Shown: positions 40,814-57,900 of the stretch, piece after piece | Layout of the letters: the number at the start of each line of letters is the position of its first letter | Numbering within the stretch: the first letter of the stretch is position 1 | IMG/VR virus record: IMGVR_UViG_3300022594_000256 | Coordinates: 3,368 to 67,367 of that record | Strand: one strand, 5' to 3' | From: a virus | Lineage: Duplodnaviria > Heunggongvirae > Uroviricota > Caudoviricetes | Length of the DNA stretch: 64,000 nucleotides | Program-made: the position numbers and the translations under genes | Notes under the pieces: generated by a model | What the model saw: only the letters and a program-made list of their open reading frames with translations | Databases searched by the model: none | What the model was told of the DNA's origin: nothing

Positions 40814-40924
40814 TGGTGTAGACGGTAGGATTCGAACCTACAGAGTCGCTCTAAGAGCTAGACCCGGACCCTCCGTTCGCCGAAGCTACTAGGAGGAGGT
40901 TTACCAAGTTACACTCACGTCTAC
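40814..40924 (-). tRNA. atypical tRNA-like gene (107 nt + encoded ACCA)
   Basis: Minus-strand RNA GTAGACG TG AGTGTAACTTGGTAAACCTCCTCCTAGTAGCTTCGGCGAACGGAGGGTCCGGGTCTAGCTCTTAGAGCGACTCT GTAGG TTCGAAT CCTAC CGTCTAC ACCA: perfect 7-bp acceptor stem, canonical T-arm (T-loop TTCGAAT), discriminator A + CCA; body about 30 nt too long for a canonical cloverleaf; anticodon not assignable by eye. Confidence 0.5.
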
Positions 40925-40938: not shown

Positions 40939-40958
40939 CTCACTTGTAAATAGTGTCA

Positions 40959-41918
40959 ATGACATTCTCACAAATACCCCTTCAAGACATTGTTGCTTTT
41001 GGACAACAGACTATGTTGGATCGCCCATTATTTAACATAAGTTGGATTTTGGGCAGATTTTGTAACTATAAATGTAGCTATTGCTGGCCCTACGCTAGAA
41101 CCGATGTGCCCGATTACCAAAGTTTAGAACTGTATAAACGTACAGTAGATGAAATTAAACGACAAGCAAGAGCAAACGGATTTACACAATTCCATTGGAG
41201 TTTTAGCGGTGGCGAACCAACTGCATACAAATATTTACTTGATTTAATTAAACACCTAGACGAAACGGAAAGTAGCTACCAAAGCATACATATGACTACT
41301 AATTTAAGCCCTGGTTCAAAATGGTGGGGTAATTGGTGTCGTAACACTGAGCTGTTACAGCGTAAAAGTATTACGGCTAGCTTTCATGAAGAGTTTGCCA
41401 AAGAACAAGAGTTTGGTGATAAGTGTTTACAGCTAATGTACGAGCTGGTTCATGTAACAGTTAATCAAGTTATGGTTCCGGAAAGGTTCTACGAAACTTT
41501 AGATCGTTGTGAACGTCTACGTGCTAGAGGAATTAACGTAACACTCAAACCGCAAAGCAATGACACTGCTACTGCTATTGTAGATGGCTATACATCTGAT
41601 ATGATTAATATCATGCAAAATGATTTTGAACAACAAGAAGGTTTTCAAATTCGATTAACAGACGGTGAAAAAGATTATTACATAGACCAAGCAGAAAGAT
41701 TCAATGCATTAGGCTTTAATAAATTTACCAATTGGAATTGTAATGCAGGATATCAAAGTGTTATAATAAGAGGTAATGAAGTCAAACGAGCATATAGCTG
41801 TCGTGATGTTCCGTTAGGTACTTTAGATAGTTTTGAACTATTTAAACAACCACAGAAATGTACTACACCTACGTGTGTAAGCTCAGCCGATAGCAAAATA
41901 CCAAAATGTATAAATTAG
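40959..41918 (+). CDS. radical SAM protein (family C: CNYxCxYC)
   Basis: Track start is GTG 40953; ATG 40959; Cx3Cx2C = CNYKCSYCWPY. Confidence 0.7.
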   Translation: MTFSQIPLQDIVAFGQQTMLDRPLFNISWILGRFCNYKCSYCWPYARTDVPDYQSLELYKRTVDEIKRQARANGFTQFHWSFSGGEPTAYKYLLDLIKHLDETESSYQSIHMTTNLSPGSKWWGNWCRNTELLQRKSITASFHEEFAKEQEFGDKCLQLMYELVHVTVNQVMVPERFYETLDRCERLRARGINVTLKPQSNDTATAIVDGYTSDMINIMQNDFEQQEGFQIRLTDGEKDYYIDQAERFNALGFNKFTNWNCNAGYQSVIIRGNEVKRAYSCRDVPLGTLDSFELFKQPQKCTTPTCVSSADSKIPKCIN

Positions 41919-42928
41919 AAGATATAAGAGACATTCACTTAGAAGTTACAACAAAATGCCAGGCAAGGTGTCCTATGTGCCCTCGCAGAATAAACGGCGG
42001 TGTCTTAAATCCTCTAATGACATTGACTGAGATAGACTTAGAAACTTTTAAACAATGGTTTAGTGTAGACTTTATTCAGCAGTTAGACAGTTTGTTTATG
42101 TGTGGTAATTTAGGAGATCCTATTATTGCACAAGACTGTCTTCCAATACTCGAATATTTAAAGTTGTCAAACCCGAAAATACGATTGTCAATGCACACAA
42201 ATGGCAGTGCAAGGAACTCCAACTTTTGGAAAAAACTAGCAGAACTAAATGTTAGGGTAGTGTTTGGTATCGACGGTACGGAAAAGACACATAGTCTTTA
42301 TCGCATCAATACAGATTATAACCAAATTTTAAATAACGCTAAGACTTTTATTGATGCTGGTGGGTACGCCGAATGGCACATGTTAGTGTTTGAGCATAAT
42401 CAACATGAAACAGAACTTTGTCAGCATACTGCTAATCAAATGGGTTTTAAAAACTTTCAAATAAAACACACTACAAGATTTACAGATACTAGTTTTCCTG
42501 TCCTTGATGATAGTGGAAAGACATTGTATCAACTATACCCAAGTGACAGAACAAAAGAACAGTTGCCAACCATATTAAAATATTCTAGAGATTTGCCTTC
42601 ATCGTTTGTAGTTGAGCAGGTTGGAAAATGTACAATTAATTGCAAGGCTGTTAAATGGAAGCAAATTTATGTTGCTGCTACGGGAAATGTAGGTCCTTGT
42701 TGTTGGATGGACTTTAAAGAAAAATTACACAAACAAAACACACGTATTGACTACATGGATAAGATAGGATTGTTTCCTAATTTACAAGAACATACTCTAG
42801 CAGAAATTTTTAATTCTGGATACTTTGATAAGATATCTAGTACATGGGATTCTGAGCCAGTATTTGAATGTGCTAAACAATGCGGTAATTTTGATAAGTC
42901 TGGGGTTCAATTTGAAAATAGATCTTGA
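41906..42928 (+). CDS. radical SAM protein (family B: CQARCPMCP) with C-terminal Cys-rich (SPASM/twitch-like) region
   Basis: LEVTTKCQARCPMCPRRINGG; C-terminal CTINCKAV...GPCCW...CAKQCGNFD. Confidence 0.7.
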   Translation: MYKLEDIRDIHLEVTTKCQARCPMCPRRINGGVLNPLMTLTEIDLETFKQWFSVDFIQQLDSLFMCGNLGDPIIAQDCLPILEYLKLSNPKIRLSMHTNGSARNSNFWKKLAELNVRVVFGIDGTEKTHSLYRINTDYNQILNNAKTFIDAGGYAEWHMLVFEHNQHETELCQHTANQMGFKNFQIKHTTRFTDTSFPVLDDSGKTLYQLYPSDRTKEQLPTILKYSRDLPSSFVVEQVGKCTINCKAVKWKQIYVAATGNVGPCCWMDFKEKLHKQNTRIDYMDKIGLFPNLQEHTLAEIFNSGYFDKISSTWDSEPVFECAKQCGNFDKSGVQFENRS

Positions 42929-42944
42929 ACACCTTCATTACTGG

Positions 42945-43502
42945 ATGCAAGCTATCCGCCAAAGTAATGATCCTATGCGCACTATGGATGCCTTTTGGAG
43001 TGGACAACTTAAAAGCAAAGAGTGGTTGATTACTAATCTTCGCAAGAATGTTGACAAAGTTGTTAGTGTAGATATACACGGTGGGTGGGTAGGAGTACTT
43101 GCCAGTATGCTGTTTCAAAGTGATATTATATGCACAACAATAAGAAGCATTGACATCGACCCTAGTTGTGAACCTATTGCTAACATGATGAACAAGGGCG
43201 AAGAGATGGTTGGCAAGTTTCGTGCAGTAACAGCGGACATGTGTACAATACGTAGCGACGCTGATGTAATTATTAACACAAGTTGCGAACATATAACACA
43301 AGACCAATTTGATTTATGGAAGTCAGGCATGCCGCATAATTCGTTACTTGTATTGCAAAGTAACAATTATATTATAGATGAGCATATTCGTCCTGCAAAA
43401 AGTTTAGAACATTTTAAAGAACAGTGTGGAATTAATGTATTGTGGGCAGGAGAATTAGAATTGCCCTTGTACACACGTTACATGATTATAGGAAAGCAGT
43501 AA
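42945..43502 (+). CDS. hypothetical protein, possible class I SAM-dependent methyltransferase
   Basis: VVSVDIHGGWVGVLASMLF resembles motif I (V.D.G.G.G); start moved to ATG 42945 to remove 104-nt overlap. Confidence 0.35.
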   Translation: MQAIRQSNDPMRTMDAFWSGQLKSKEWLITNLRKNVDKVVSVDIHGGWVGVLASMLFQSDIICTTIRSIDIDPSCEPIANMMNKGEEMVGKFRAVTADMCTIRSDADVIINTSCEHITQDQFDLWKSGMPHNSLLVLQSNNYIIDEHIRPAKSLEHFKEQCGINVLWAGELELPLYTRYMIIGKQ

Positions 43503-44920
43503 TGGATAAGGTATTTTGGTTACAACCAGAAAACACTCAATTAGGTGATTGGCAAAAACAAATAACCGAAGTATCTGGAAGCCCTAGCTTTTGTGTCCTT
43601 CCATGGATACACTTAGCAACACGCCCTAACGGCGACATGCGTATTTGTTGCGTAGCCAATGCTAGTGGTGCAGAGTCTGGCGATTATTCTGTAGGACTTG
43701 TTAAAAAGGAAGACGGAACTCCTGCTAACTTTGGAAGAGATTTACCAACAGAAGCATTTAACAATGACTATATGAAGTCAGTAAGAAAAACAATGTTAGC
43801 AGGTGAAGTTCCTGCTAGCTGTCTTAAATGCTACGAGGAAGAACAACGAGGCATCAGCAGTAAACGTATTTGGGAAACTGGTACTTGGTACTTACATGAA
43901 CAATTGGACATTAAAGAACTAATTGCTGAAACACAGGAAGACGGAACAGTCCCTCATAAACTTCAATATTTAGATTTACGTCTAGGCAACACTTGTAACC
44001 TAAAGTGCATTATGTGTAGTCCGCACGACAGTAGCATGTGGACAACTGAATACAAAAAAGTATATCCGATATTTCAAAGCCCATTGATTAAAAGCCAAAT
44101 GGGCTGGGATGAAAGTTTACACGATAACCGCTGGCACGAGAATCCTAAATTCTGGGAAGAGATATTTGATCAGATTCCTAACATTAAACAATTGTACTTT
44201 GCCGGTGGCGAACCTTTACTAATTAAAGAGCATAGGATTTTATTAGAAGAAATTATCAAGCGTGGGTACGCAGATAAGATTAGTTTGCGTTATAACACTA
44301 ACGGTATACTAGTGTCAGATGAAATTATTGACGTTTGGAAAAAATTTAAAAAAGTTAAAGTTGGTGTTAGTTTAGACGGCATTGGCCCACGTGGAGAATA
44401 TATACGTTATCCGTTAGATTGGAAAACTGTAGAAGCTAATTTAATTAAGTTAGACAATGCTCCTAACAACATACAAACAAACATTGCTATGGCAGTACAA
44501 ATTTTAAATATCAAGCACGTTCCAGATTTTATCAAATGGAAAGTGGGCATGAATTTTAAAAAAATTAATTTTGATAAAAATGCAGCTGGGCACACAATGG
44601 GCGGTGGACTAGTTGGTGTACACTTGTTATGGATTCCAACTTGGCTAAGTTTACGTGTTCTTCCTAAAGAAGACAAAGAAGAAGTGCGTAAAATGTTTGC
44701 GGAACTACAAGAATGGCTGTGGAAACATTATACACAGGATAAAGAGTTTTGGGAAATTAACCCGTATGGGTGGAAACGTTGGGAAGGCATACTAGATTGG
44801 ATGGATGCCGAAGACGATACTCGCTTGCTTACAGACTTCCGCGAATACATTAGTAAAATGGATAACCAACGTAAAACAAATTTTAAAATTACATTTCCTG
44901 AGATTGCACATTTACTATGA
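43502..44920 (+). CDS. radical SAM protein with N-terminal Cys-rich extension (family A)
   Basis: FCVLPWIHLATRPNGDMRICC...CLKCY then CNLKCIMC; start set to ATG 43502 (TAATG coupling). Confidence 0.7.
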   Translation: MDKVFWLQPENTQLGDWQKQITEVSGSPSFCVLPWIHLATRPNGDMRICCVANASGAESGDYSVGLVKKEDGTPANFGRDLPTEAFNNDYMKSVRKTMLAGEVPASCLKCYEEEQRGISSKRIWETGTWYLHEQLDIKELIAETQEDGTVPHKLQYLDLRLGNTCNLKCIMCSPHDSSMWTTEYKKVYPIFQSPLIKSQMGWDESLHDNRWHENPKFWEEIFDQIPNIKQLYFAGGEPLLIKEHRILLEEIIKRGYADKISLRYNTNGILVSDEIIDVWKKFKKVKVGVSLDGIGPRGEYIRYPLDWKTVEANLIKLDNAPNNIQTNIAMAVQILNIKHVPDFIKWKVGMNFKKINFDKNAAGHTMGGGLVGVHLLWIPTWLSLRVLPKEDKEEVRKMFAELQEWLWKHYTQDKEFWEINPYGWKRWEGILDWMDAEDDTRLLTDFREYISKMDNQRKTNFKITFPEIAHLL

Positions 44921-45954
44921 AACCTATAAAGATTGTATCAACTCAACAGGCAAATATCTTAGAAATAAGATGGCATCCTAATAATGTTTGTAACTATTCA
45001 TGTGAATACTGCTGGCCCGGAAGTCACGACGGCGATTACCCGTCTCCAAAAAATTTAGATCTTATAATTAAAAATTTTAATCACATGGCAGAGCATTATA
45101 AGACTCAGTTAGGTAAAACTAAAATACATCTTAAGATGGGTGGCGGTGAACCTACATTGTGGAAAGACTTAGCAAAGTTCATACGAGAAGTAAAAAAGAA
45201 TAATGACATATATTTTACAATTATTAGTAACGGTAGTAGAACACTGCGTTGGTGGAAAGAAAATGGTGACTTAATAGATAACGCACATCTGTCTTTTCAT
45301 ATTGCACAAGCAGATGCTGATCATATGATTGCTGTTGCTGACACTCTGTTTGAGTTTAATAAAAAGGTAACTGTTAAAGTACTTATGGACCGCAAGCATT
45401 GGCAGGAAGGCTTAGACGTTATTGAGTACATGAAAAAGAATAGTAAGCATAAATGGTTTATTATGACCAGCGAGGTAATTGAGCCTGAGACTCTTAAAAT
45501 AGCAGGTATAAGGGTTGTAAGCAATACTGACATTCAATTAACCCCTGCCCAAAAAGGCTTCCTAAAAAATCCACTAAAAAGAATACCTAGTTTATTATGG
45601 TTTTGGAAAAATATAAAATTAGTATTTGAAGGGCAGATTAGACTGTTCGAAAGTGTTATGTATTTTGACAACAATAAAAAACAAAAAGCAAAGACTAACA
45701 CCTACATTAACAATGGGTGGACTAGCTTTCAAGGTTGGAGTTGTGATATTGGCTTAGAAAATGTTTACATTGATTGGGCAGGATCTATTCAAGGATCATG
45801 CGGGCAAACACTTTACGGGTTAGATCATAATTTTAATATCCTGGATGAGGATTTTGTAGAAAAATTTAATCCAGAATTGAAGCCATCAATTTGTGCTATT
45901 AGAAACTGTTTCTGTGTTCCAGAAACTCATGTCTCAAAGTTTAACCTTAGTTAA
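44917..45954 (+). CDS. radical SAM protein (family C)
   Basis: LEIRWHPNNVCNYSCEYCWPG; ATGA coupling. Confidence 0.7.
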   Translation: MKPIKIVSTQQANILEIRWHPNNVCNYSCEYCWPGSHDGDYPSPKNLDLIIKNFNHMAEHYKTQLGKTKIHLKMGGGEPTLWKDLAKFIREVKKNNDIYFTIISNGSRTLRWWKENGDLIDNAHLSFHIAQADADHMIAVADTLFEFNKKVTVKVLMDRKHWQEGLDVIEYMKKNSKHKWFIMTSEVIEPETLKIAGIRVVSNTDIQLTPAQKGFLKNPLKRIPSLLWFWKNIKLVFEGQIRLFESVMYFDNNKKQKAKTNTYINNGWTSFQGWSCDIGLENVYIDWAGSIQGSCGQTLYGLDHNFNILDEDFVEKFNPELKPSICAIRNCFCVPETHVSKFNLS

Positions 45955-46833
45955 GGGAATGTCAGCAGCACAAGTACAGAAGTTCCTATCACAAATGATC
46001 GGAGCATCGGGGACATTAAAAGTTCCTGCGTAAATATTTCCTAAACTGCCGCCCACACGACAAGTAGCGCGGTGAACTTCTCCGTCCCAGTTAATCATTA
46101 GACTTTCTAAGCCTGCATTACAGCTCCATCCTTTCCATTGATTTAAATGTAGTTTAATAATGTCATTAGCATGATACAGCATCTCTTGACCATTGTCATC
46201 TGTTAATACAGTATTTGCTTTTACAGTAGCACTATGTTCTTTAATCCAAATTAAATCATCAGGGTGATAACGCATATCGTCAAACAAGTCATGGTCGCCT
46301 TCGGTCCAACGTATGCGCCTAACAGTTGTAGAAATCCCATCTGCATATAATGTATGGTACGATGCTTTAACAAATGCCATATGATCATGATGTGCCATTA
46401 GCTGTGCAATAACTGGCGTAAGAGTTTGTGCTGCTACAGTTCGTAACGTGTTGCATATACGCATCCAATCATATTCAAAATGTACACTGAATACATATTG
46501 ATCAACTGGTAAGGATTGATAAAACTCTGCAGGTAGTGTGCCGTTAGTTGTTACACTAATCCAACTAATGCCAACATGCTTACAGTATTTTACTAGTTCT
46601 TGAAATTTAGGATGTACTGTAGGTTCGCCGCCAGTAAAGCTAAGACGTATAGGCTTGCCTAGAGTCATTAGTTTGTCTACAGTTGCTTTAAGGGTTTCTA
46701 TGTCGGTGTGTGGACTTGAATTGTCGTGTATGCTACTAGGGCAGTAGCTACAATCGTAGTTACAACGCTTGCCAAGATTCCACTCAATTTTAATCGAATC
46801 TTGATGCGGCCAACGACTAGTTACTTTAGACAA
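45934..46833 (-). CDS. radical SAM protein (family C)
   Basis: IKIEWNLGKRCNYDCSYCPSS; TTG start with GGAG SD, overlaps upstream gene by 8 nt; convergent with 44917..45954 (21-nt 3' overlap). Confidence 0.65.
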   Translation of the reverse strand: MSKVTSRWPHQDSIKIEWNLGKRCNYDCSYCPSSIHDNSSPHTDIETLKATVDKLMTLGKPIRLSFTGGEPTVHPKFQELVKYCKHVGISWISVTTNGTLPAEFYQSLPVDQYVFSVHFEYDWMRICNTLRTVAAQTLTPVIAQLMAHHDHMAFVKASYHTLYADGISTTVRRIRWTEGDHDLFDDMRYHPDDLIWIKEHSATVKANTVLTDDNGQEMLYHANDIIKLHLNQWKGWSCNAGLESLMINWDGEVHRATCRVGGSLGNIYAGTFNVPDAPIICDRNFCTCAADIPLTKVKL

Positions 46834-48079
46834 TGGACTTAAACTCCGGAGTTACATCTGTAAAACTTTGATTTCGAGTTACATCTAATCTACGATTAAA
46901 TTCTACACAGTCTTGCCATTTCTCGGATTGATCTCGAGCATTAAGATAGTTAATGTTATCTTGTATTTGACCCAACGTATATGCTAACAGTTGCGGATGC
47001 TGCTTAACAAGTTTAAAGTCCTTAATACGATAGCTAACTTCTTGTAGGCGTTGTATTGCTAATGCTCGCAACTTAGGAGGTAGTACTTGTGCCGATAGTA
47101 ACTTGGGATATTCTACTCTGTGTGTATGGAACACAATACCTAACTCATCTAAGAAATACTCAATCATTTTATCTAAGATAAGCACGTTACTTACTTGAAC
47201 AGTTACTGCCCCGACGATTCTACTAATGTTTGAGATTTTTTGGATCTCTTGTATGTTCTGTACAAGAATGTTCCAGTCGCTGTTACCGCGAACGTACTCG
47301 TAAACAGAACCAATGCCGTCAATAGAGACGTTAACGGCAACACTTCTAAACTTAGGCCAATATTCGTGAACACTTCGTCCTCCTTTAATTCCTAATGTAC
47401 TTAGGTTTGTAGCATACTTAATTTCTATTTGATGCCCGTATGGAGAAAGCATGTCTAAAATTTTATAATGCTGTGGATCCATTAATGGCTCTCCGCCTGC
47501 AAATTCTACACGTCGAAAATAGGGCAATAGTTTTTCTAAACTTGCCCACCACTTTGGATCATCTTGGAATTTATCAAGAAACGGTTTGCGTTCTAAATTA
47601 TGTTCTTCTACAATGGCATACATAATGTTGCCTTCTGCTTTGTAAAAGTCTTTAACTTCGCTCCAATCATTCCAACTAGTACTATCCATCGGATGACACA
47701 TGCGACACTTAAGATTACACAAGTTGTTTAACTTTAATTCCATTGTAGGAATTTCAAATGGCATTACTTCTTGTAACGGAGTGTTCGGATAAAGGTTAAT
47801 ACGTGCTTCTGGAATTTTACCTGATATATGTCGAACACGTAAACTTTCAACACCTTGGTCCTCTAAACTGAAACAGGGCTCACACTCGGGTGGGCGTTCG
47901 TTGTTAAGTACTTGCCTACGAATACGCTGCATTGTTTTGTTGTTCCAGATTTCTTCTAACGACTCTTTGTCTATAAAGCCAACAGGGTGGCTACGACAAC
48001 AAGCACATATAGCACCGTCTTCCCTAGTGGCTAACCCTGTAAACGGGTGCATACAAAATGTTTTACTGTTCTGCGACAT
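46826..48079 (-). CDS. radical SAM protein with N-terminal Cys-rich extension (family A)
   Basis: FCMHPFTGLATREDGAICACC...CEPCF then CNLKCRMC. Confidence 0.7.
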   Translation of the reverse strand: MSQNSKTFCMHPFTGLATREDGAICACCRSHPVGFIDKESLEEIWNNKTMQRIRRQVLNNERPPECEPCFSLEDQGVESLRVRHISGKIPEARINLYPNTPLQEVMPFEIPTMELKLNNLCNLKCRMCHPMDSTSWNDWSEVKDFYKAEGNIMYAIVEEHNLERKPFLDKFQDDPKWWASLEKLLPYFRRVEFAGGEPLMDPQHYKILDMLSPYGHQIEIKYATNLSTLGIKGGRSVHEYWPKFRSVAVNVSIDGIGSVYEYVRGNSDWNILVQNIQEIQKISNISRIVGAVTVQVSNVLILDKMIEYFLDELGIVFHTHRVEYPKLLSAQVLPPKLRALAIQRLQEVSYRIKDFKLVKQHPQLLAYTLGQIQDNINYLNARDQSEKWQDCVEFNRRLDVTRNQSFTDVTPEFKSIV

Positions 48080-48914: not shown

Positions 48915-48954
48915 GAAATATTTAACCTCATTAAGTGCGCATATAAATATTTTC
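48915..48954. promoter_or_regulatory. divergent intergenic spacer with 9-bp inverted repeat AAATATTTA(N19)TAAATATTT
   Basis: sequence aaatatttaacctcattaagtgcgcatataaatattt between the leftward and rightward operons. Confidence 0.3.
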
Positions 48955-49620: not shown

Positions 49621-51164
49621 ACCACGCACTATTTTTTAGCCTAACAGGCAAACGATGGGAACGCATCTTATGGGTACACCGTGTTGCTACATTCCTACGA
49701 ATGAATGAGTGGGACGCAGAGGTTGTAGACTTTACAGCATTTTGGCAACTAGAAGAATTGCAAGAACTAGTGCGTAGCAGAACAACAGACAAGACTGTTA
49801 TGTTTTGTTTTGGCACGGCATTTTTGAATCCATGGAGTCCATACTTAAATGAATTTATTGATTGGCTAAAACAAGAGTATCCAACTATTCCTATTGTAGT
49901 TGGTGGCAACAACGCACTAACAACTCCGGCCAACAGTGTAGACTATTGGGTAGATAGTTACGGGGAAAATGCTGTGCTAGCATTGTGCCAACACCTTATC
50001 GGAACACTAGGCGCACCATTAATGACTGACTCTGCATTCTTTGGCAGCAAGAAGGTTATACGTGGACTACACCATTATCCTTCAGCGCCACTAGACAGCT
50101 ACCTAGTTGATTACGAAACACGTGACTTTATGATGCCATGGGAATGCCCGCAAATTGAAACCGCACGTGGTTGCATGTTTAGCTGTAGTTATTGTAACTT
50201 TCCTATCATTGGGCAAGCTAAAGACGTTAGTGTAAGCAAAGAACAATTCAAACTTCAAATGCAAACAGGCTACGAAAAGTGGGGGATTAAGAATTGGCGT
50301 GTTATGGACGAAACATTTAACGATCGTCCTGAAAAACTGCAAAAGTATGCAGACGCTGTTGATGAGCTAGGATACAATCCTTGGATATGTGGATTTGCTC
50401 GTGGTGACTTGGTTGTTAAACATAAGGAACATTGGGACACTTATATCAGATTAGGCTTCCTTGGACATAGCATGGGTATTGAAACATTTAATCATGCTGC
50501 TGGTAAACTTGTACGCAAGGGTATGGATCCTGACAAACTACAACAAGGGTTATTAGAGTTTCAGGAATATACTGACATACATGCTCCTAAGCGATATAGA
50601 GCAAACATTCAAATGATTTGCGGCATTCCGGGCGAAACTAAAGAATCGTGGCATCAATCATTAGACTGGCTCAATACAAAGTGGACTAGACAAAGCGCCA
50701 GCGCACACATATTAGAAGTACCGGACTACGACGAAACACTTACAAATCAAAGTCGTTTTACTAAGGAACTAGTAAACAACGGACTAATTAAATTAGAAGC
50801 TAGACAAAATCCAGGGTATAATGTAACTAAAGATAGCAGAGGAAATGTTATTTTTAAATCTACTACTCCGCGAGGAGGTGGCGTCGGTAGCACGAGAAAT
50901 GATATTGTTATTTGGCAACACAACACAATGGATTGGTATCAAGCAGAATCTCTAGTACAAGAATTTTACTCACCTAACGGGTTTACTGGACTACGGGGGT
51001 GTAACCCATTCTTATCTGATAGAGTATTTGCTTATTATGAAACAAATTCATATGAAGATATCTATGATTGTAGACTAACAGATATAGATACGTCTGATCA
51101 AAAGTTTAAAGAACAAGTACAAGCGTATATTAATAAAAAATTAAATTGGAATAGCAATGTTTAA
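49617..51164 (+). CDS. B12-binding radical SAM protein
   Basis: N-terminal cobalamin-binding-like region (PIVVGGNNALTTPANSVDYWVDSYGENAVLALCQHL) then CMFSCSYC. Confidence 0.7.
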   Translation: MNHALFFSLTGKRWERILWVHRVATFLRMNEWDAEVVDFTAFWQLEELQELVRSRTTDKTVMFCFGTAFLNPWSPYLNEFIDWLKQEYPTIPIVVGGNNALTTPANSVDYWVDSYGENAVLALCQHLIGTLGAPLMTDSAFFGSKKVIRGLHHYPSAPLDSYLVDYETRDFMMPWECPQIETARGCMFSCSYCNFPIIGQAKDVSVSKEQFKLQMQTGYEKWGIKNWRVMDETFNDRPEKLQKYADAVDELGYNPWICGFARGDLVVKHKEHWDTYIRLGFLGHSMGIETFNHAAGKLVRKGMDPDKLQQGLLEFQEYTDIHAPKRYRANIQMICGIPGETKESWHQSLDWLNTKWTRQSASAHILEVPDYDETLTNQSRFTKELVNNGLIKLEARQNPGYNVTKDSRGNVIFKSTTPRGGGVGSTRNDIVIWQHNTMDWYQAESLVQEFYSPNGFTGLRGCNPFLSDRVFAYYETNSYEDIYDCRLTDIDTSDQKFKEQVQAYINKKLNWNSNV

Positions 51165-52245
51165 ATTCAGCGACCTTAAAGAACTACAGTTAGAAATAAC
51201 TAACAACTGTCAGGCTCGTTGCCCAATGTGCCCAAGAAACATTAACGGTGGATTGGAAAATCCTCTTATTAAAACTACAGAGTGGACACTTGAAGATTTT
51301 AAAATTATAATGAATCCTAAGGTACTGAACCAAATTGAATGTTTTCACTTGTGTGGAAACTTTGGTGATCCTATGATGAATGACGATGTCATTGATATGT
51401 GTCAGTACACTACAGATACAAATCCTAATGTATGTTTACAATTTCATACAAACGGTGGAGCAAGAAAACCAGAGTGGTGGGAAAGATTAGCAAGAGCATT
51501 ACCAAAAAATCATAGAGTTATTTTTGCTATTGACGGATTAGAAGACACTCTTAGTTTATATCGAATAGATACAAAATATGAAACAGTTATAAAAAATGCA
51601 CAAGCGTTTATTAACGCCGGCGGAATAGCTGAGTGGGCTTTTATTAAATTTAAGCATAATGAACATCAAATAGAAGAAGTAAGACAGAGAGCAAAAAATT
51701 TAGGGTTTGCACACGTATCAATTAAAAATAGTTTTAGGTTTTTAACAGACACAAAATTTCCTGTCTTAAAGAAAAATGGATCTCTTGATTATTATTTAGA
51801 AACACCTTCTCAAACAACAATTAAATTAATTGATAAAGAAACAATTAAGAATTGGGATAACACTATGAAGTCTGCAGAAATAGAATGCAGAGCACAAAGT
51901 AGCAGCGCAATTTATATAGATGCTTACAAAGATTTTTATGCTTGCTGTTATTTGGGTACAGTTCCGTTTATGTTTGTTTCCGATGATATAACAAAAGGTA
52001 TACGAGGGAAAATGGTTGAACAGCATCATACCATGGTATCTAAGTTAGGTGAAATTAATACTCTTAAAAGATCAATTGAAGACATTTTAAATTCTAATGA
52101 ATATCAAGAAGTATGGAAAGACATGTGGCATGATAATAAATCTCATATGTGCGTCACCATTTGTGGTAAACATAAGAATTTAGAACAGACTCAATTTTGG
52201 GATCAATGGGAAGAATATACCGAGTTAGACAAGGATAAACAATGA
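51157..52245 (+). CDS. radical SAM protein (family B)
   Basis: LEITNNCQARCPMCPRNINGG; C-terminal Cys pairs. Confidence 0.7.
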   Translation: MFKFSDLKELQLEITNNCQARCPMCPRNINGGLENPLIKTTEWTLEDFKIIMNPKVLNQIECFHLCGNFGDPMMNDDVIDMCQYTTDTNPNVCLQFHTNGGARKPEWWERLARALPKNHRVIFAIDGLEDTLSLYRIDTKYETVIKNAQAFINAGGIAEWAFIKFKHNEHQIEEVRQRAKNLGFAHVSIKNSFRFLTDTKFPVLKKNGSLDYYLETPSQTTIKLIDKETIKNWDNTMKSAEIECRAQSSSAIYIDAYKDFYACCYLGTVPFMFVSDDITKGIRGKMVEQHHTMVSKLGEINTLKRSIEDILNSNEYQEVWKDMWHDNKSHMCVTICGKHKNLEQTQFWDQWEEYTELDKDKQ

Positions 52246-52934
52246 CTGACACACGTAGTTGGAATTACTATTACAAGTTAAACACTAACGGAGTCCCACA
52301 TAGTTCAAACCTGCTGTATACACCCACTGTTAATCCAGAACAGACAGTAATGTGTATGCACTACTGTACAGATCCGGTATATCGCTCTGACGAAGATACA
52401 CAAGTAAATGAAGAATTAGTACAATGGTTTTTTGAAAGAGAAGTTAAGTTCTTAAACAATCTAGCTCATCTTAAAACTACACCTACTGTATATGACGTGG
52501 ATCTTAAAAGTAGAAAAGTTTTTATAGAATGGAACAAGGAAACATTATCACAGATATTGTTCACCCCCGGTAGAAATCTAAATGAGGAACTACCTAACTG
52601 GCAAGAGCAAATTAGAAATTTTTTAATTGCAACTAAAGAAAATAAATTTTGGAAGATGGCACTGTATCCTCACTGTTTTTATATTTCAAAAGACGACGTG
52701 TTAAAGACTATAGATCATTATTCTGTAGTTCCATACGAAGAGCAATTTATTGAAAGAAGAATTATTGAAGGTGTTATAGGTAAGCACGGTGCATATCGTT
52801 TTGATGCATCAACTGATGATAAAGGTTTTATTGACTTTAAGAAGTTCTTTGAAATTACAGTAACAAAACATTTATCTATGACTTGGCCCAATGATATATT
52901 TGCTGATGTGTTTAAAGAGATTTATAATGATTAA
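52242..52934 (+). CDS. hypothetical protein (paralogue of 57940..58626)
   Basis: DLKSRKVFIEWN vs DLDSRKLYLEIDG and overall collinearity. Confidence 0.5.
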   Translation: MTDTRSWNYYYKLNTNGVPHSSNLLYTPTVNPEQTVMCMHYCTDPVYRSDEDTQVNEELVQWFFEREVKFLNNLAHLKTTPTVYDVDLKSRKVFIEWNKETLSQILFTPGRNLNEELPNWQEQIRNFLIATKENKFWKMALYPHCFYISKDDVLKTIDHYSVVPYEEQFIERRIIEGVIGKHGAYRFDASTDDKGFIDFKKFFEITVTKHLSMTWPNDIFADVFKEIYND

Positions 52935-53418
52935 TTGGAATACAGTAATTGATAACTTAACTGACGGTAAGGTTGTTACTGTTGATCCAGCACGTTGGAA
53001 TATGAATAATCCAGAATATGCAGCAATGCTAAACTTATGGAAGCGTAGCAACTTTAATACAGACAGTGTTAAGTGGACAAACTATTATAACACTAAAGAT
53101 ATCGAAACTGAAGTAGCTAAGGAAGTAAGTATTACACCATTGCGTAGTTGGATTAGTTGTGTCGAACCTGGATACATGACTGGATATCATTACGATATTG
53201 ACGACAACGAAAAAGAATATCTTAAATATGGATTATTAAAAAGATATTCGGTGTTTATTAGCGAGCCCAGTGTTGGGCACTTGTTTATTTTAGGTAAAGA
53301 ATACTTTTACAACAGTCCTCAAGGAACAATAGTTAAATGGGGCAATTACAGAGATTGGCATAACGGCATTAATGGCGGACTTGCAAACAAATACATGTTT
53401 CACATAATAGGATATTAA
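52927..53418 (+). CDS. AspH-like cupin hydroxylase paralogue
   Basis: GYHYDIDDNEKEY ... DWHNGINGG; start set to ATG 52927. Confidence 0.4.
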   Translation: MINWNTVIDNLTDGKVVTVDPARWNMNNPEYAAMLNLWKRSNFNTDSVKWTNYYNTKDIETEVAKEVSITPLRSWISCVEPGYMTGYHYDIDDNEKEYLKYGLLKRYSVFISEPSVGHLFILGKEYFYNSPQGTIVKWGNYRDWHNGINGGLANKYMFHIIGY

Positions 53419-53419
53419 A

Positions 53420-54514
53420 ATGTTTTCTTTTGAACAGCTAAACACAATACACGTAGAAATAACCAACAGGTGCCAAGCTAGTTGTCCTATGTGTCCAAGA
53501 AATATCCACGGCGGTATTGACAATCCATCTTTAATTTTAACTGATTGGACTCTTGAACGATTTAAAGATACGTTCACTGAAGAGGTATTGTATCAAGCAA
53601 AGTGCATTAATTTTTGCGGGGACTTTGGTGACCCAATGATTAATTCTGATTTAATAGATATGTGCCGGTATGTTAAGCAAACAAATCCTAGTGTGTTAAT
53701 ACTAATAAGCACTAATGGATCAGCACGTACAACCAAGTGGTGGAAAGAACTTGCAGAAGCTCTACCAGAAAATCATAAAATAATGTTTGCCTTAGATGGA
53801 TTAGAAGATACACATGCGTTACATAGAATCGGAACTGATTTTAATACAGTAATTAAAAATGCAAGCGCCTTCATTAGTGCAGGCGGAAAAGCAGAATGGG
53901 TATTCATTAGATTTAAACATAACGAAACACAAGTCGAAACTGCTAGACAAATGTCAAAGAATCTAGGTTTCCAGAGTTTTAAATTAAAAGACAGCAAACG
54001 CTTATTCTGGGACAAGTATCCAGTACTTGATAGACAAGGAACGGTATCCTACCATATCGAAGCTCCTAGTCAAAGCAATGTTAAAACAATTAGTTTTATT
54101 GATTTAAAAGATTTTAAAAAATGGAAAACTGATGTTAACTGCTGGTCCTTTGATGATAAGGAACTTTACATAGATGCTAACGGGTATCTAATGCCTTGCT
54201 GTATAATTGGATCATTTCTTTACACTAATTACGATGTTGAAGTGTATCGTAAGTATGGAGTCCTAAACTCTAACGGTGTTATTGAAACTGGTAGGGAAAT
54301 TCAATCAGAAGTGTTTTCTATTATTAGAGAACTTGGCGGACTAGATGCTTTAGATTCTAAGCAGCACTCGATTAAAGATATAATGAACGCAGAATCATGG
54401 CAAACATTGTTACACAAGAAATGGGATGAATACAGTTCTTCTGCATGTAAGTTAATTTGCGGAGACGTTTCACCGTTCATGAAAGTCCCTGAGCAAGTCA
54501 ATCGTACATCGTAA
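53420..54514 (+). CDS. radical SAM protein (family B)
   Basis: VEITNRCQASCPMCPRNIHGG. Confidence 0.7.
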   Translation: MFSFEQLNTIHVEITNRCQASCPMCPRNIHGGIDNPSLILTDWTLERFKDTFTEEVLYQAKCINFCGDFGDPMINSDLIDMCRYVKQTNPSVLILISTNGSARTTKWWKELAEALPENHKIMFALDGLEDTHALHRIGTDFNTVIKNASAFISAGGKAEWVFIRFKHNETQVETARQMSKNLGFQSFKLKDSKRLFWDKYPVLDRQGTVSYHIEAPSQSNVKTISFIDLKDFKKWKTDVNCWSFDDKELYIDANGYLMPCCIIGSFLYTNYDVEVYRKYGVLNSNGVIETGREIQSEVFSIIRELGGLDALDSKQHSIKDIMNAESWQTLLHKKWDEYSSSACKLICGDVSPFMKVPEQVNRTS

Positions 54515-55022
54515 TTTGTAAGGTGTACCTTGTGTTGTATCCTATGTTAGCAGGCCCATGCACTATCATAGGATCACTCCATTCAAATAAATCCCCTGCT
54601 TTATAGTTTGCAGCAACTTTATCATCGTAGACAAATACGTGTCCTGGTTCCCAATCTTGTAAGAACATTGTATAGCGCACAGGATTACTAACTTCCGTCA
54701 ACTGTGGATCAATATGCATTGCTTGGAACTCTCCAGGATACAACATAACAAACCACCAATTAACATTAGTTCGTTTTTCAGGAACATCTGGAAGTTGCCA
54801 TTTAAAGTCTTGCATCTCAGCAGACTTGGGATTCATTTGATGAAAGAAGTGTTTGTTATTAGAGTAGCCTGGGCGGGCCATCTCGGTGAACTTTTCTAGT
54901 ATAGCATTACCTTTCCAACGATCTGGTTGCCATACAGGAGTTTTATCACCTTGACAATTAGTAAGGTGCTCCATTATTTTGTATTCTTCAATCCAACTTT
55001 TATAGTTGCCTATGTACTTCAT
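54498..55022 (-). CDS. AspH-like cupin hydroxylase paralogue
   Basis: AMHIDPQL ... IVHGPANIG. Confidence 0.45.
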   Translation of the reverse strand: MKYIGNYKSWIEEYKIMEHLTNCQGDKTPVWQPDRWKGNAILEKFTEMARPGYSNNKHFFHQMNPKSAEMQDFKWQLPDVPEKRTNVNWWFVMLYPGEFQAMHIDPQLTEVSNPVRYTMFLQDWEPGHVFVYDDKVAANYKAGDLFEWSDPMIVHGPANIGYNTRYTLQITMYD

Positions 55023-55825
55023 TAATAGCTGTCCAAATGATCTATTCCTAGTTTCTTACGGAACGCTTCTGTAAACTTGCCATCAATTCGTAAACCGTAG
55101 CTTTGTTCCATGATCCTTTCACCACCATGCCAGTCGACATCATTCCACCACGCAGCACGAGTATTCAAATATGTCTTGTCTTTAGTTTCTGGATCCCACA
55201 AGTAGAAAGCCTTCTTTGTGTTAGGGCGAATGTGTATAAATTCGTTGCGGTGTGGCTTAACTACATTAACACCGTTCTTAGCATCTAAGTCTCGGTGCTC
55301 AAATGGAATACCATCAGCTTCGCAGTGGAAGAATATAACACGCCCTATGTCTTCAAACACAGTACCTACTAGACTTTCAACCCACTTAACTACGTTAGGA
55401 AAGTATGCTGCTTCGTCTGTAAGTTTGCGCGGTGCAGTTCTGTCATCCCACGAACCTTCTTCCCACAAGTAATAATAAATGTATGGATCGTAAGCACCCA
55501 TTGCCATTTTAAGATAGCGAGTAAACTTGTTACGCTCTTGAAAGTTTTTAAAGTCTTTGGGCATTAACTGTAGCCCTGCTTGCTTAATAGGACTATCGTC
55601 AGGCAATTGCTGTAACTCTTGCATTGCTTCGTATATAGGTTTCCAATTAGGACGATAGCTCATATCATCAAATGTAAATCCCGGAGCCATCCATGTGCCT
55701 TCTTTGGCAAACTCTCGTGCTAGAGCGAACCCTGTAAGTATCTCGGGCTGTAGTTGATCAAACTGATCCATATCTAAGTATGGAGTCATATCGTAGTAGG
55801 GTTTATTATTAATCCCGTGCATCAT
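55022..55825 (-). CDS. hypothetical protein
   Basis: start trimmed to ATG 55825 (AAGGA SD) from longer track ORF overlapping upstream radical-SAM gene by 104 nt. Confidence 0.45.
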   Translation of the reverse strand: MMHGINNKPYYDMTPYLDMDQFDQLQPEILTGFALAREFAKEGTWMAPGFTFDDMSYRPNWKPIYEAMQELQQLPDDSPIKQAGLQLMPKDFKNFQERNKFTRYLKMAMGAYDPYIYYYLWEEGSWDDRTAPRKLTDEAAYFPNVVKWVESLVGTVFEDIGRVIFFHCEADGIPFEHRDLDAKNGVNVVKPHRNEFIHIRPNTKKAFYLWDPETKDKTYLNTRAAWWNDVDWHGGERIMEQSYGLRIDGKFTEAFRKKLGIDHLDSY

Positions 55826-56873
55826 ATTTCCTTTGGTACTTTTCAGGTATAGTATCGTACAATGGTAAGTTTTTATTAACAGCACCATCACGCAGTATAA
55901 CTTGATGTACAAGCGGACTTACTGGTTTACCCGGCAACATGTCTGCCCATGATTCAGTTTGGTCCTCTTCGAGATCAATTGTACGCACATCGGGCCACTG
56001 GATTATCTTAACTAGAATTCCGTTAATACGCATTGGATAGTGAGCTCTAATTGCATAGCCAGGAGCATACTCGTATGTCCAACCCTTCTTATCACATACA
56101 GCTTTTACTAAGTCTACTAGCTCTGAAAGGTATATCTTTTCTTCTCCAGGATGGCGTCCGATATCTGTTCCTACTCTTACTCTATAATTGTGCGGACTAA
56201 GTGTTCGTCCAAACTCTTGTATCTCTTCTAAACAGTATTCTAATTGGGCAATGGTTTCAAGAGTATAACTGACATTCTTTATTTTCATGTCTAACTTCAT
56301 ACAGTTGTCGATACCTTCCATTTGTTTCTTTCTAACTGTATGTCCTTGGTAGTCAGGATGGTTTAATCCTATAGTCCAAAACAAGTTAGGAATGTCTTTA
56401 AACTGTTGAGCATACTCATAATCAGATAGGTACACACCATTTGTCAAAATCATTATACTACGTGGCTTGCCTGGTAGTGCTTGTATAGCACGGCATAGCT
56501 CTGGTAAGTCTTTTCTAGTAGTTGGCTCAGCACCCATTAGGGCAACAGCGTAGCCATCGTCTTCCCATGCTCGTATAATATCTAGTATGTTTTCTATACT
56601 AGGGTCTTTGCTCATGTTATCTGGTATTTGATAGCAGTGAGGGCAATTTAAATTACATCTGTTAGTGATATCTAAACAGTATGTTTTGTTTGTTGGACGA
56701 TCGTACGTGTAGTTAAGATAAAAATTAGCATTAGGTTCTACTAAGTGTTCACTCTCGCCATGCCATTTACATTTCTTTGACAACCATATTTTTCCATCTC
56801 TTTCAAACAACGTAGCAGGAATATGTCTATAGCAGTGTTCGCATATAGATGTTGTATCGTGTATTTTATTCAT
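55809..56873 (-). CDS. radical SAM protein (family D: CNLxCPHC)
   Basis: LDITNRCNLNCPHCYQIPDN. Confidence 0.7.
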   Translation of the reverse strand: MNKIHDTTSICEHCYRHIPATLFERDGKIWLSKKCKWHGESEHLVEPNANFYLNYTYDRPTNKTYCLDITNRCNLNCPHCYQIPDNMSKDPSIENILDIIRAWEDDGYAVALMGAEPTTRKDLPELCRAIQALPGKPRSIMILTNGVYLSDYEYAQQFKDIPNLFWTIGLNHPDYQGHTVRKKQMEGIDNCMKLDMKIKNVSYTLETIAQLEYCLEEIQEFGRTLSPHNYRVRVGTDIGRHPGEEKIYLSELVDLVKAVCDKKGWTYEYAPGYAIRAHYPMRINGILVKIIQWPDVRTIDLEEDQTESWADMLPGKPVSPLVHQVILRDGAVNKNLPLYDTIPEKYQRKYDARD

Positions 56874-57900
56874 GTCTATATTTTTCAGGTACTGTATCGT
56901 ACAACATCTGTCCTTTGTTAACTGCTTGATCTCTTAGTATAACTTGATGCAGTAATGGGCTCATTGGCTTACCTGGAACAATGCTAGCCCAGGATTCACT
57001 TTGTACTTCTTCTAAGTCGATAGTACGCACATCACACCACTTGATAAACTTGTGTTCAATACCGTTTATACGAACAGCATAGTGTGTGCGATTACCGCCT
57101 GTGTAATCAGGTTCCCATGTCCACCCGTTGTCTAAACAAAACTTTTCAGCAACTGCAACTAATTCCGATAGGTACAGTTCTTTAAATTCGCCCTCAGGTA
57201 CTCGTCCAATTTCAACACCTAACTGTATCCTAGCATTGATACCAAACTTTTGTACTTCGTGCATTACATCAGTTAACTGTTCTAAATTGGCTAGTGTATA
57301 AGTTAATGTTTTTACATCTAGTCCTAATTTAATACAGTTTTCTAATCCTTCCATTTGCTTAGTACGAATCTGTCCGCCATTGTAATCAGGATGGTTAAGT
57401 CCAAAGGTCCATTTAAGATTTGGTATACCTTGGAATCGTTTTACATAATCCCATTTAGCCAAATACACGCCATTAGTAACAATTATAACATTTCTAGTCT
57501 TAATGGGCAACGCATGTATTGCCAAAACTAAATCGGGCAAGTCTTTACGCACAGTAGGTTCAGCACCAACAAGGCTAACTGGTAATCCGTTATCGGGCCA
57601 ACTCATAACTTCTGACAATAGGTAATCAATACTAGGATCTTTACTATTGTTATCAGGCATTTGGTAACAATGCGGGCAATCTAAGTTACAACGATTAGTG
57701 ATGTCTAACCAATATGAACTTGGCTTACGTCTTTGATATTGTTGACTTTTATAAAAGTCTGTGTTAATATCTAGTATTGCTTCTTGATATCCGTGCTTAG
57801 GGCAAGTTTTGCCTAGCATCATTTTACCATCCTTTTCGAATCGTTCTGCTGGAATATGACGATAGCATGTTTCGCATAAGGATGTTGTTTGGGTTAGCAT
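56866..57900 (-). CDS. radical SAM protein (family D), tandem paralogue
   Basis: LDITNRCNLDCPHCYQMPDN; strong collinear similarity to 55809..56873. Confidence 0.7.
   Translation of the reverse strand: MLTQTTSLCETCYRHIPAERFEKDGKMMLGKTCPKHGYQEAILDINTDFYKSQQYQRRKPSSYWLDITNRCNLDCPHCYQMPDNNSKDPSIDYLLSEVMSWPDNGLPVSLVGAEPTVRKDLPDLVLAIHALPIKTRNVIIVTNGVYLAKWDYVKRFQGIPNLKWTFGLNHPDYNGGQIRTKQMEGLENCIKLGLDVKTLTYTLANLEQLTDVMHEVQKFGINARIQLGVEIGRVPEGEFKELYLSELVAVAEKFCLDNGWTWEPDYTGGNRTHYAVRINGIEHKFIKWCDVRTIDLEEVQSESWASIVPGKPMSPLLHQVILRDQAVNKGQMLYDTVPEKYRHE

Follow-up and report, generated by a model that had tools for sequence, protein, structure and literature searches.

A conserved island of radical S-adenosylmethionine enzyme families in large environmental phages, with counterparts in Bdellovibrionota

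We analyzed a stretch of 64,000 nt of DNA (the window, whose coordinates are used throughout) from a virus of the Caudoviricetes, IMG/VR record IMGVR_UViG_3300022594_000256, with a focus on its genes for radical S-adenosylmethionine (rSAM) enzymes. These genes belong to an accessory island that lies in two pieces, at 16.3-25.5 kb and from 40.95 to ~66.7 kb, the second of which extends beyond the window end. The contig carries at least 15 rSAM genes of five families (A to E), including a third family-E member of 504 aa just outside the window; within the window, the CxxxCxxC motif is present in 14 open reading frames, and Pfam Radical_SAM matches all 14. Comparison with related contigs showed that this accessory island is conserved across a widespread clade of large, myophage-like phages from the environment and that the cassette amounts to a conserved pathway made up of multiple families.

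Radical-SAM families of the island

The five families differ in the domains that accompany the rSAM core. Family A has an N-terminal twitch domain ahead of the core, the architecture of NCBIfam NF033640, whose cut-off of 170 bits is exceeded by A1, A2 and A3, each over model positions 1-398 (Table 1). A fourth protein with this architecture, A4 (gene 23140), is divergent and reaches 78 bits on NF033640, under the cut-off. The motif C-x12-G-x4-CC stands at residues 31, 51, 9 and 24 of A1, A2, A3 and A4, with the core at residues 147, 185, 121 and 128, respectively, and an N-terminal Pfam SPASM match was obtained for A1, A3 and A4. In families B and C, the core starts at residues 18-37 and is accompanied by a C-terminal SPASM/twitch-like cysteine domain (CX9-15GX4-6C). 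Pfam SPASM (PF13186, cut-off 21.5) gave 30.7 bits for B1, with B2 (19.6) and B3 (19.4) just under, and CX13-14GX4CC was found in B1 and B3, not literally in B2. Family D combines an N-terminal zinc ribbon (PF23545, 55.2 and 57.3 bits in D1 and D2; cut-off 27) with the core, and family E is assigned a B12-binding domain plus the core, the B12-binding match being above the Pfam cut-off of 32.1 in E1 (35 bits) and below it in E2 (21 bits). Paralogues within families in the window are 21-56% identical. For A2 and B2, a sequence search returned no PDB relative.

The motifs that an earlier note on this DNA had given for the families are present: LE(V/I)T..CQA(R/S)CPMCPR.I.GG in B, LDITNRCNL(N/D)CPHCYQ in D and CNY.C.YC in C, and (F/I)C..P(W/F)..L.....G....CC followed by C..C(F/Y) in A. 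Its division of the genes into dispersed paralogous subfamilies was borne out, with the subfamilies spread across six alternating operons, and the two 230-aa genes that it paired (52242 and 57940) are true paralogues by hhalign. Its count of four cupin paralogues holds in part: 52891 and 54498 are clear paralogues, while the relationship of 48913, 61257 and 55022 is remote, at the superfamily level only (hhalign 54-81%). The reference families with which it had proposed to compare the enzymes, namely, PoyD-like epimerases, SPASM maturases of ribosomally synthesized and post-translationally modified peptides (RiPPs) and QueE, gave no match at curated cut-offs. More broadly, no curated NCBIfam model other than NF033640 reaches its cut-off for the window rSAMs, including those for RiPP maturases, QueE, MoaA and viperin, and family E reaches no NCBIfam subfamily cut-off. 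The paralogue families as originally observed are correct but ordinary; the surrounding island is a good unexplained target.

Between 40953 and 64000 the genes overlap or abut, and the sole gaps measure 162 bp and 40 bp. The longer gap, which separates 40474-40791 (-) from 40953 (+), holds a tRNA-like element of 107 nt (40818-40924, - strand). Its acceptor stem has 7 bp (GUAGACG/CGUCUAC), its T-arm is perfect (GUAGG-UUCGAAU-CCUAC) and its 3' end reads ACCA. The element is unconfirmed, as ARAGORN reported nothing, the fold z-score was -0.9 and the sole Rfam match was to tRNA-Sec (19 bits, E 0.23). A degenerate tRNA, a tRNA with an intron or a tRNA-like signal heading the island could explain it.

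Table 1. Genes of the rSAM island and auxiliary genes in the window; genes without a family letter are named in the text by their first coordinate
Feature	Position	Strand	Observations
A-type Fe-S cluster carrier (IscA/SufA-like)	13944-14267	-	Pfam Fe-S_biosyn 74.5 bits; directly upstream of giant fibre gene
UvdE UV-damage endonuclease	15034-16131	-	135 bits; auxiliary, link to rSAM pathway not obvious
PTPS/QueD-family protein	16335-16883	-	Pfam PTPS 95 bits (cut-off 22.4); auxiliary, link to rSAM pathway not obvious
E1, rSAM family E (B12-binding + core)	20118-22136	-	Pfam B12-binding 35 bits (cut-off 32.1), Radical_SAM 62.8 bits
336-aa protein, unknown	22133-23143	-	In A1-A4-E1 cassette; sub-threshold Glyco_transf_9 hint (E 0.21); present in some relatives
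A4, rSAM family A-like	23140-24249	-	Pfam SPASM residues 24-87 (27.8 bits) + Radical_SAM; adjoins A1 conservedly, 63-69%
A1, rSAM family A	24249-25538	-	NF033640 346 bits; second cassette, near fibre genes; phage orthologues 68-81%
MazG-like pyrophosphatase	27255-27626	-	Auxiliary, link to rSAM pathway not obvious
C1, rSAM family C	40953-41918	+	CNYKCSYC at residue 37; Pfam Radical_SAM 49.9 bits
B1, rSAM family B (core + C-terminal SPASM/twitch-like)	41906-42928	+	CQARCPMC at residue 18; CX13GX4CC at residue 246
Class I S-adenosylmethionine (SAM)-dependent methyltransferase-fold protein	42825-43502	+	True start probably near 42897-42912
A2, rSAM family A	43442-44920	+	Likely start 43502; NF033640 407 bits; orthologues up to 82%
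C2, rSAM family C	44917-45954	+	CNYSCEYC at residue 25; Radical_SAM 52.7 bits; C-terminal CX12GX5C
C3, rSAM family C	45934-46833	-	CNYDCSYC at residue 24; Pfam 50.8 bits; orthologues 57-73% in phages, 41-45% in Bdellovibrionota
A3, rSAM family A	46826-48079	-	Gene callers 46826-48052; NF033640 328 bits; Pfam SPASM residues 9-69
Pyridoxal phosphate (PLP)-dependent-enzyme-like protein	48063-48956	-	Fold-type I motifs; putative assignment
Cupin/Asp-Arg-hydroxylase-like	48913-49620	+	Called start 48955; Pfam Asp_Arg_Hydrox weak (E 0.01); hhalign 72-81% to 61257/54498 profiles
E2, rSAM family E (B12-binding-type)	49617-51164	+	Radical_SAM 47.8 bits; B12-binding 21 bits, under cut-off 32.1; orthologues 77-92%
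B2, rSAM family B	51157-52245	+	CQARCPMC at residue 18
230-aa protein-kinase-fold-like	52242-52934	+	hhalign 99.6% to 57940 profile
Small cupin-like	52891-53418	+	Called start 52927; hhalign 99.4% to 54498 profile; H-x-D ... H motif in sequence
B3, rSAM family B	53420-54514	+	CQASCPMC at residue 18; present or absent among relatives
Small cupin-like	54498-55022	-	Paralogue of 52891; 1-5 tandem copies in related phages
Highly conserved unknown protein	55022-55912	-	Called 55022-55789, 255 aa; orthologues 74-89% in 46 loci; hhalign 64% to 61257 profile
D1, rSAM family D (N-terminal zinc ribbon + core)	55809-56873	-	Pfam Zn_ribbon_HMPTM 55 bits, Radical_SAM 57 bits
D2, rSAM family D	56866-57900	-	Tandem with D1; 56% identity to D1
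230-aa kinase-fold-like	57940-58626	+	Paralogue of 52242
Conserved 183-aa protein	58614-59165	+	Sub-threshold Pfam hints only (DUF2396, FeeM); syntenic in 37 loci
Two-domain protein	59159-60592	+	Predicted N-terminal GT-A (nucleotide-diphospho-sugar transferase) fold and C-terminal class I methyltransferase fold
PP-loop ATPase, QueC-like C-terminus	60552-61256	+	Pfam QueC 32.8 bits (C-terminal part only); ATP_bind_3 23 bits
Asp/Arg-beta-hydroxylase-family Fe/2-oxoglutarate (2OG) oxygenase	61257-61904	+	PF05118 47 bits; homologues 32-38% beside Bdellovibrionota family-A arrays
TauD/TfdA-family dioxygenase copy 1	61901-62755	-	Tandem triplet; Pfam TauD 86 bits; 54% identity to 62752
TauD-family dioxygenase copy 2	62752-63618	-	Pfam TauD 80 bits
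TauD-family dioxygenase copy 3	63615-64000	-	Cut by window end; 279 aa on full contig

Age and distribution of the paralogues

A search with B2 returned 340 relatives in IMG/VR, and the best 80 loci are 48-56% identical to B2, whereas B2 shares a lower 35-44% with B1 or B3. These loci repeat the gene order C1-42825-B-A2-C2-C3-A3-48063-48913-52242-52891, often with matching phage genes upstream, and orthologues in loci of conserved order are typically 50-85% identical, with an overall range of 50-96% across dozens of IMG/VR phage contigs. The search with D2 gave 35 contigs, 34 of which keep the D2-D1 pair, its order and its flanks (57940-58614-59159-61257 and 55022-54498-52891-52242-E2), and the remaining one has a single D gene in the same context. 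Orthologues of D2 are 58-96% and those of D1 58-91% identical, and D1 and D2 can be distinguished down to ~58%. The second cassette, A1-A4-(22133)-E1-18859-17338-UvdE, is conserved likewise in phage contigs. Orthologues of C1 are 60-78% identical in 60 phage loci, in each of which they adjoin the 42825 methyltransferase, compared with 21-23% between C1 and C2 or C3. Similarly, more than 120 sequences orthologous to A3 reach 80% identity or above, against 24-30% between A3 and A1 or A2, and the A3 homologues with E below 1e-10 number 3041.

The family-B tree separates B2 from B3, each of which clusters with orthologues of its own, B2 in a large "core B" clade; B1 is an orphan outgroup. The ratio of nonsynonymous to synonymous divergence (dN/dS) was 0.04-0.14 for every paralogue tested, or pN/pS was 0.16-0.37 where synonymous sites were saturated; the dN/dS values indicate strong purifying selection. 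Among relatives, the presence of B3 and the location of the core B gene vary; the location of B2 between E2 and 52242 was seen in 0 related contigs carrying both flanking genes. Copy number varies as well, with 1-3 copies of B, a third D in 5 contigs, 1-5 cupins of the 54498 type and 1-4 TauD genes.

Cellular counterparts were sought with the family-A alignment in one genome per GTDB species, which gave 169 hits, and 80 loci were kept. The hits come overwhelmingly from metagenome-assembled genomes (MAGs) of Bdellovibrionota, including contigs of 0.9 and 3.0 Mb. Family A accounts for 241 genes in the 80 loci, often arrayed in tandem with as many as about ten in 21 kb, and the loci carry homologues of B, C, 48063, 61257, 59159 and 42825 as well. 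The trio C1-B1-A2 recurs in them at 36-50% identity, B1 being 36-39% identical to Bdellovibrionota genes. The A, B and C paralogues each have cellular counterparts, above all in Bdellovibrionota. The nearest cellular sequence is 61% identical to A1, 51% to A2 and 42% to A3, and the three are mutually only 26-30% identical. None of 100 bootstrap neighbor-joining trees united any two of A1, A2 and A3 without cellular sequences. Since cellular sequences lie between the A paralogues of the window, the subfamilies predate any exchange between phage and cell. The phage and cellular arrays thus share ancestry.

The cellular arrays are themselves large. About 7-13 tandem rSAM paralogues with an N-terminal twitch domain lie on the Bdellovibrionia contigs JAUHWN010000007.1 and JAUICP010000002.1 (loci L093/L094/L096), with like arrays at L098/L122 (on the 3.04-Mb contig CBDCLX010000002.1), L125 and L118. 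These chromosomal arrays also contain B, C, PLP-like, Asp/Arg-hydroxylase and 59159-like genes, a striking expansion in predatory bacteria. Outside this phylum, the Bacteroidales MAG contig CAZVKJ010000006.1 (L128, 9938-16477) has four tandem A1-like rSAM genes, cellular or possibly of a prophage, with a C-like gene between them, and these copies are the closest non-phage relatives of A1 (54-61% identity).

The earlier note had read the paralogues as iterative expansion of the whole cassette, with repeated duplication for different sites or substrates. In its strict form, this would be recent duplication in the phage lineage itself, with copies diverging fast under relaxed or diversifying selection. 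D1/D2 and the TauD triplet do stand in tandem, and B, the 54498-type cupin, TauD and the third D vary in copy number among related contigs. Nevertheless, orthologues of each paralogue are much closer than the paralogues are to one another, D1/D2 orthologue pairs stay distinct even at ~58% identity, cellular sequences intervene between A1, A2 and A3 in 100/100 bootstraps, and dN/dS is low throughout. Recent duplication is already contradicted for A, B2/B3, C and D, and we regard it as extremely improbable for the island. The synteny comparison in related phages that the earlier note had called for gave conserved gene order, with each paralogue accompanied by its own orthologues. These orthologues, together with the separate clades and the cellular intermediates, place the splits before the divergence of these phages. 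Therefore, expansion within this phage is not upheld, whereas the idea of different sites or substrates survives, since purifying selection on each copy fits distinct roles rather than redundancy. Overall, these comparisons indicate that the paralogues are old, separately conserved lineages and not recent copies.

Accessory genes and the candidate product

The window also encodes phage genes: tail-fibre proteins (one of 3432 aa), a baseplate-connector-like protein, a prohead protease, an ATP-dependent DNA ligase and a phage-type 2OG-Fe oxygenase. Beyond the window, the same contig carries rIIB (by Pfam), an adjoining 724-aa open reading frame in the rIIA position, for which Pfam gave no match, and an Mtd-like receptor-binding protein. 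Megablast with 34 kb of the window found no DNA-level match in 50,697 deposited phage records, and the window DNA was found identically on many metagenome contigs, such as JGI contig Ga0236341_1000030 (79.8 kb; window position 1 is contig position 1617). By tblastn, the DNA ligase is at best 32-36% identical to Bacillus-type phages, which is too weak for placing the phage. Clusters P0001 and P0121, 100% identical to window proteins, are also recorded on a contig of 345,198 bp, which would fit a jumbo phage unless that contig is a concatemer or chimera. In the window, the T4 late-promoter motif TATAAATA shows no enrichment (3 found against 8.1 expected), and expression timing is therefore not inferable from it. 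Two further genes, 39011-39682 (-) and 29465-30184 (-), are paralogues (28% identity, E 2e-6) that both contain HExxH (HEYKH and HEMIH), which suggests zinc metallopeptidases; neither could be assigned to a family.

In 11 phage contigs and 1 Haliscomenobacter MAG, family-A cassettes adjoin genes that have the C-terminal 125-170 aa in common with the giant fibre, an association that suggests a role in host recognition or in the exclusion of competing phages. The giant fibre itself (3640-13938, -; 3432 aa) ends in a conserved domain at about residues 3274-3432 (YADLAE..Y.PGTV..GG...GRVPVKV.G.V.KGD), which is 36-49% identical to the cassette neighbors in L028, L210-L214, L216-L218, L220, L221 and the Haliscomenobacter MAG (L141) and gave no PDB sequence match. 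The domain may resemble autoproteolytic chaperone domains of fibres. The Ser/Thr richness of the fibre proteins (22% versus 11%) was considered as a sign of glycosylation and judged non-diagnostic.

Several accessory genes narrow the kind of chemistry that the island may perform. The 42825 protein has a predicted class I methyltransferase fold of the small-molecule type. In 48063, the residues D173-x-A175 and S198-x-x-K201 are invariant in an 18-sequence alignment, aminotransferase profiles match weakly (E 0.38), and the gene is conserved beside family-A genes in phages and Bdellovibrionota; we infer from the Asp and Ser-x-x-Lys residues that it may encode a fold-type I PLP enzyme. The resemblance of the 230-aa family to protein-kinase folds is weak: its profile matches TTK kinase (E 2.9e-5), with Bud32-type kinase-containing chains insignificant (E 0.011-0.05). 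A GT-A Rossmann-like fold is predicted for the N-terminal domain of 59159. The 59159 homologue P0191 (707 aa) is a natural fusion with a QueC-like PP-loop domain (PF06508), which argues that 59159 and the neighboring 60552 work together. At least eight Fe/2OG oxygenases are present, five of them cupin or Asp/Arg-hydroxylase-like and three the tandem TauD copies, whose nearest solved relatives, TfdA and TauD, act on small molecules. The A-type Fe-S carrier is probably a support for the many Fe-S enzymes, with 30 or more rSAM clusters. Neither Pfam nor NCBIfam gave a significant match, even to E 5, for 48063, 52242, 52891, 54498, 55022, 57940, 58614, 59159, 22133, 17338 and 18859, and a PDB sequence search with 22133 returned nothing usable.

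Neighboring genes of the cellular homologues point in the same direction as the fold of 42825. Across the 80 loci, the unrelated neighbors seen most often are GT2 glycosyltransferases (in 15), carbamoyltransferases (in 11) and an ABC ATPase (in 8); an operon GT2-GT2-A-A-C is repeated in 6, and a Kdo-hydroxylase-like protein and a patatin-led operon also recur. Taken with the sugar genes in the island of Pelagibacter phage Mosig, described below, these features favor a sugar-based product. Overall, the island is best explained by radical chemistry that tailors a glycan or glycoconjugate with a part in host recognition, to which we assign a probability of roughly 0.5. Naming the substrate class outright, as a sugar-based product (glycan or glycoconjugate, possibly glycolipid) tied to host recognition, is more tentative and falls somewhat short of even odds; the evolutionary statements carry much higher confidence than the substrate class. 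Under such a scheme, the rSAM enzymes would catalyze steps within a single tailoring pathway, either in succession or at specific sites, with two SAM methyltransferase-fold proteins, the GT-A/methyltransferase fusion, the PLP-like enzyme, the two kinase-fold proteins, the PP-loop ATPase and the Fe/2OG oxygenases as partners and with clusters probably supplied by the phage Fe-S carrier. The substrate, a glycan or glycoconjugate, would sit either on the host envelope or on proteins of the virion or fibre, and radical chemistry could supply C-methylation, epimerization, deoxygenation, oxidation or C-C bond formation.

A number of points weigh against tailoring of a glycan. Neither a nucleotide-sugar synthesis gene nor a classical glycosyltransferase family was recognized by sequence in the window. 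The N-terminal domain of 59159 is a glycosyltransferase candidate from its modeled fold, which nucleotidyltransferases share, and no DxD motif has been established in it. The argument from cellular context draws on homologues that are only 25-50% identical. Many island proteins have no assignable fold, and neither product, substrate nor acceptor was observed. The remaining points concern particular genes and bear on three other substrates, as follows.

Peptide maturation, too, typically involves SPASM/twitch domains, found here in A, B and C, and Asp/Asn hydroxylases, and the island includes members of the Asp/Arg-hydroxylase family. Among NCBIfam models, E1 best matches a RiPP maturation radical SAM C-methyltransferase subfamily (116 bits, under its cut-off of 282), and rSAM cassettes stand recurrently beside fibre genes. 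The rSAMs, B12-rSAM methylases and hydroxylases might thus act at many sites of a ribosomal peptide or of a virion protein such as the 3432-aa fibre. Nevertheless, the two gaps leave no room for a precursor gene, Pfam scans reported no PqqD/RRE domain in any rSAM, and the position of CxxxCxxC in B and C excludes a leader-binding domain ahead of it. The best curated RiPP models score 20-116 bits against cut-offs of 282-850, and the island has no peptidase or exporter. Together with the glycosyltransferase and carbamoyltransferase neighbors of the cellular homologues and the small-molecule relatives of the TauD copies, this makes modification of a peptide or protein unlikely.

Hypermodification of nucleic acid, in which a modified base (e.g., a 7-deazaguanine derivative) or an exotic sugar on the phage DNA would evade restriction, is brought to mind by the PTPS/QueD protein at 16335 and the PP-loop ATPase with its QueC-like C-terminus, which hint at 7-deazapurine chemistry, and by the MazG-like pyrophosphatase at 27255. 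Kinase-fold, PLP and rSAM enzymes also take part in thymidine hypermodification pathways (PMC8989533), and the multi-rSAM Campylobacter phage CP220 has a weak homologue of family B. On the other hand, QueE models give C2 and C3 only 26-29 bits against cut-offs of 206-260, the NCBIfam QueC model gives 60552 24 bits against 150, and Pfam found no TGT/DpdA or GTP cyclohydrolase I among the window proteins scanned. In bacterial chromosomes, the same families stand in large arrays with GT2 and carbamoyltransferase genes as neighbors, rather than in a setting of phage DNA metabolism, and the PTPS gene lies 24-40 kb from most of the island. We therefore consider this explanation distinctly unlikely.

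In the cultured bacterium Paenibacillus polysaccharolyticus, a family-A gene lies in a cluster of the order ACP-SDR-KS-KS-GT2-PPTase-ABC (ACP, acyl carrier protein; KS, ketosynthase), which by analogy suggests a lipid or glycolipid product. The island might accordingly act on acyl chains or membrane lipids, for example, through hydroxylation of lipid A or C-C coupling or methylation of tails. Lipid A and Kdo hydroxylases belong to the Asp/Arg-hydroxylase and KdoO families, tetraether lipid synthase (Tes) is the nearest characterized relative of family D, ladderane and hopanoid B12-rSAMs are among the sub-threshold matches of family E, and a patatin phospholipase heads the recurrent Bdellovibrionota operon. 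However, lipid-enzyme models fall far under their cut-offs (Tes 86 versus 450 bits), and acyl carrier protein, ketosynthase and acyltransferase were not recognized in the phage island. Lipid tailoring is very unlikely on this evidence, although it overlaps with tailoring of a glycoconjugate if the product is a glycolipid such as lipopolysaccharide.

If the island does tailor a glycan, a wider possibility arises, which we consider speculative and unlikely as a joint claim: phages of this clade and predatory Bdellovibrionota might share one hitherto unrecognized biosynthetic system, composed of arrays of rSAMs with an N-terminal twitch, the B/C/D/E rSAMs, Fe/2OG oxygenases and the GT-A/methyltransferase, that builds a heavily radical-tailored glycan for decoration of the fibres or adhesins with which prey is recognized or for remodeling of the prey or host envelope. 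If true, it would mean a new class of radical-SAM glycan chemistry central to host recognition in two unrelated bacterial predators. At least 15 Fe-S radical enzymes are an exceptional biosynthetic investment for a virus, and the thousands of close homologues of single island genes in public metagenomes argue that the pathway is abundant in nature. For enzymology, C1, the 42825 methyltransferase, B and A2 offer a defined minimal gene set, and for phage biology, the island offers a testable connection of radical chemistry to host recognition.

Comparison with known systems

Proteusin/polytheonamide RiPP pathways use a similar palette of enzymes (an rSAM epimerase, B12-rSAM C-methyltransferases and an Fe/2OG hydroxylase). 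The window differs from them in having no precursor peptide, RRE, protease, exporter or curated match, and its cellular context is rich in glycosyltransferases. Searches of the literature on phage RiPP clusters and on Bdellovibrio rSAM paralogues found nothing that explains the island. As for viral glycan machinery, the glycosyltransferase/methyltransferase A064R of chlorovirus PBCV-1 shares just 7% sequence identity, and we know of no radical-SAM enzymes that participate in the chlorovirus glycan system.

At the level of single families, A1-A3 match NF033640 end to end, with the N-terminal C-x12-G-x4-CC ... C-x2-C ahead of the CxxxCxxC core, and the fourth copy, 23140, stays below the curated cut-off. 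To our knowledge, the NF033640 family is uncharacterized; a literature search found no paper on it or on rSAMs with an N-terminal twitch, and three to four distinct NF033640 lineages per phage and tandem arrays in Bdellovibrionota are not described in the papers searched. D1 and D2 have the N-terminal zinc ribbon and adjoining rSAM core in common with the Tes/GDGT-MAS group and with MJ0619-type zinc-ribbon rSAMs, yet they are ~350 aa long compared with ~500 aa for Tes/GDGT-MAS. The nearest solved structure to D1 is GDGT/MAS synthase (PDB 7tol, E 5e-20), over only ~100 core residues, and on the Tes equivalog D1 and D2 score 86 and 76 bits (cut-off 450).

A distantly related island is found in the cultured Pelagibacter phage Mosig (MT647606), between the tail fibres and VrlC. 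It includes rSAM, TauD, Asp/Arg-hydroxylase and methyltransferase genes together with an ArnB-like sugar aminotransferase, an epimerase and a carbamoyltransferase. Its homologues of B, C, 42825, 48063 and TauD are weak (22-28%), and members of A and D were not recognizable in the Mosig region read.

For pelagimyophages, Zaragoza-Solas et al. 2020 (PMC7029224) placed rSAM cassettes within the "host recognition cluster", and an A-type Fe-S carrier gene with 12 rSAM genes was reported in one T4-like genome (Nishimura et al. 2017, PMC5332604). The fibre-adjacent family-A cassettes described here agree with the former placement. The published work on T4-like cassettes noted the presence of the genes, and not their family structure, synteny or function. 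The occurrence of many rSAM genes in T4-like aquatic phages and NF033640 as a curated family were thus already known, while the division of the cassettes into conserved lineages of orthologues, the core set of genes that recurs, the GT-A/methyltransferase component and the Bdellovibrionota parallel appear to be undescribed in the papers searched. The cassettes of pelagimyophages and other T4-like marine phages and the window have in common many rSAM genes beside tail fibres in a large myophage, accompanied by Asp/Arg-hydroxylase, TauD, methyltransferase and aminotransferase genes and by a phage A-type Fe-S carrier.

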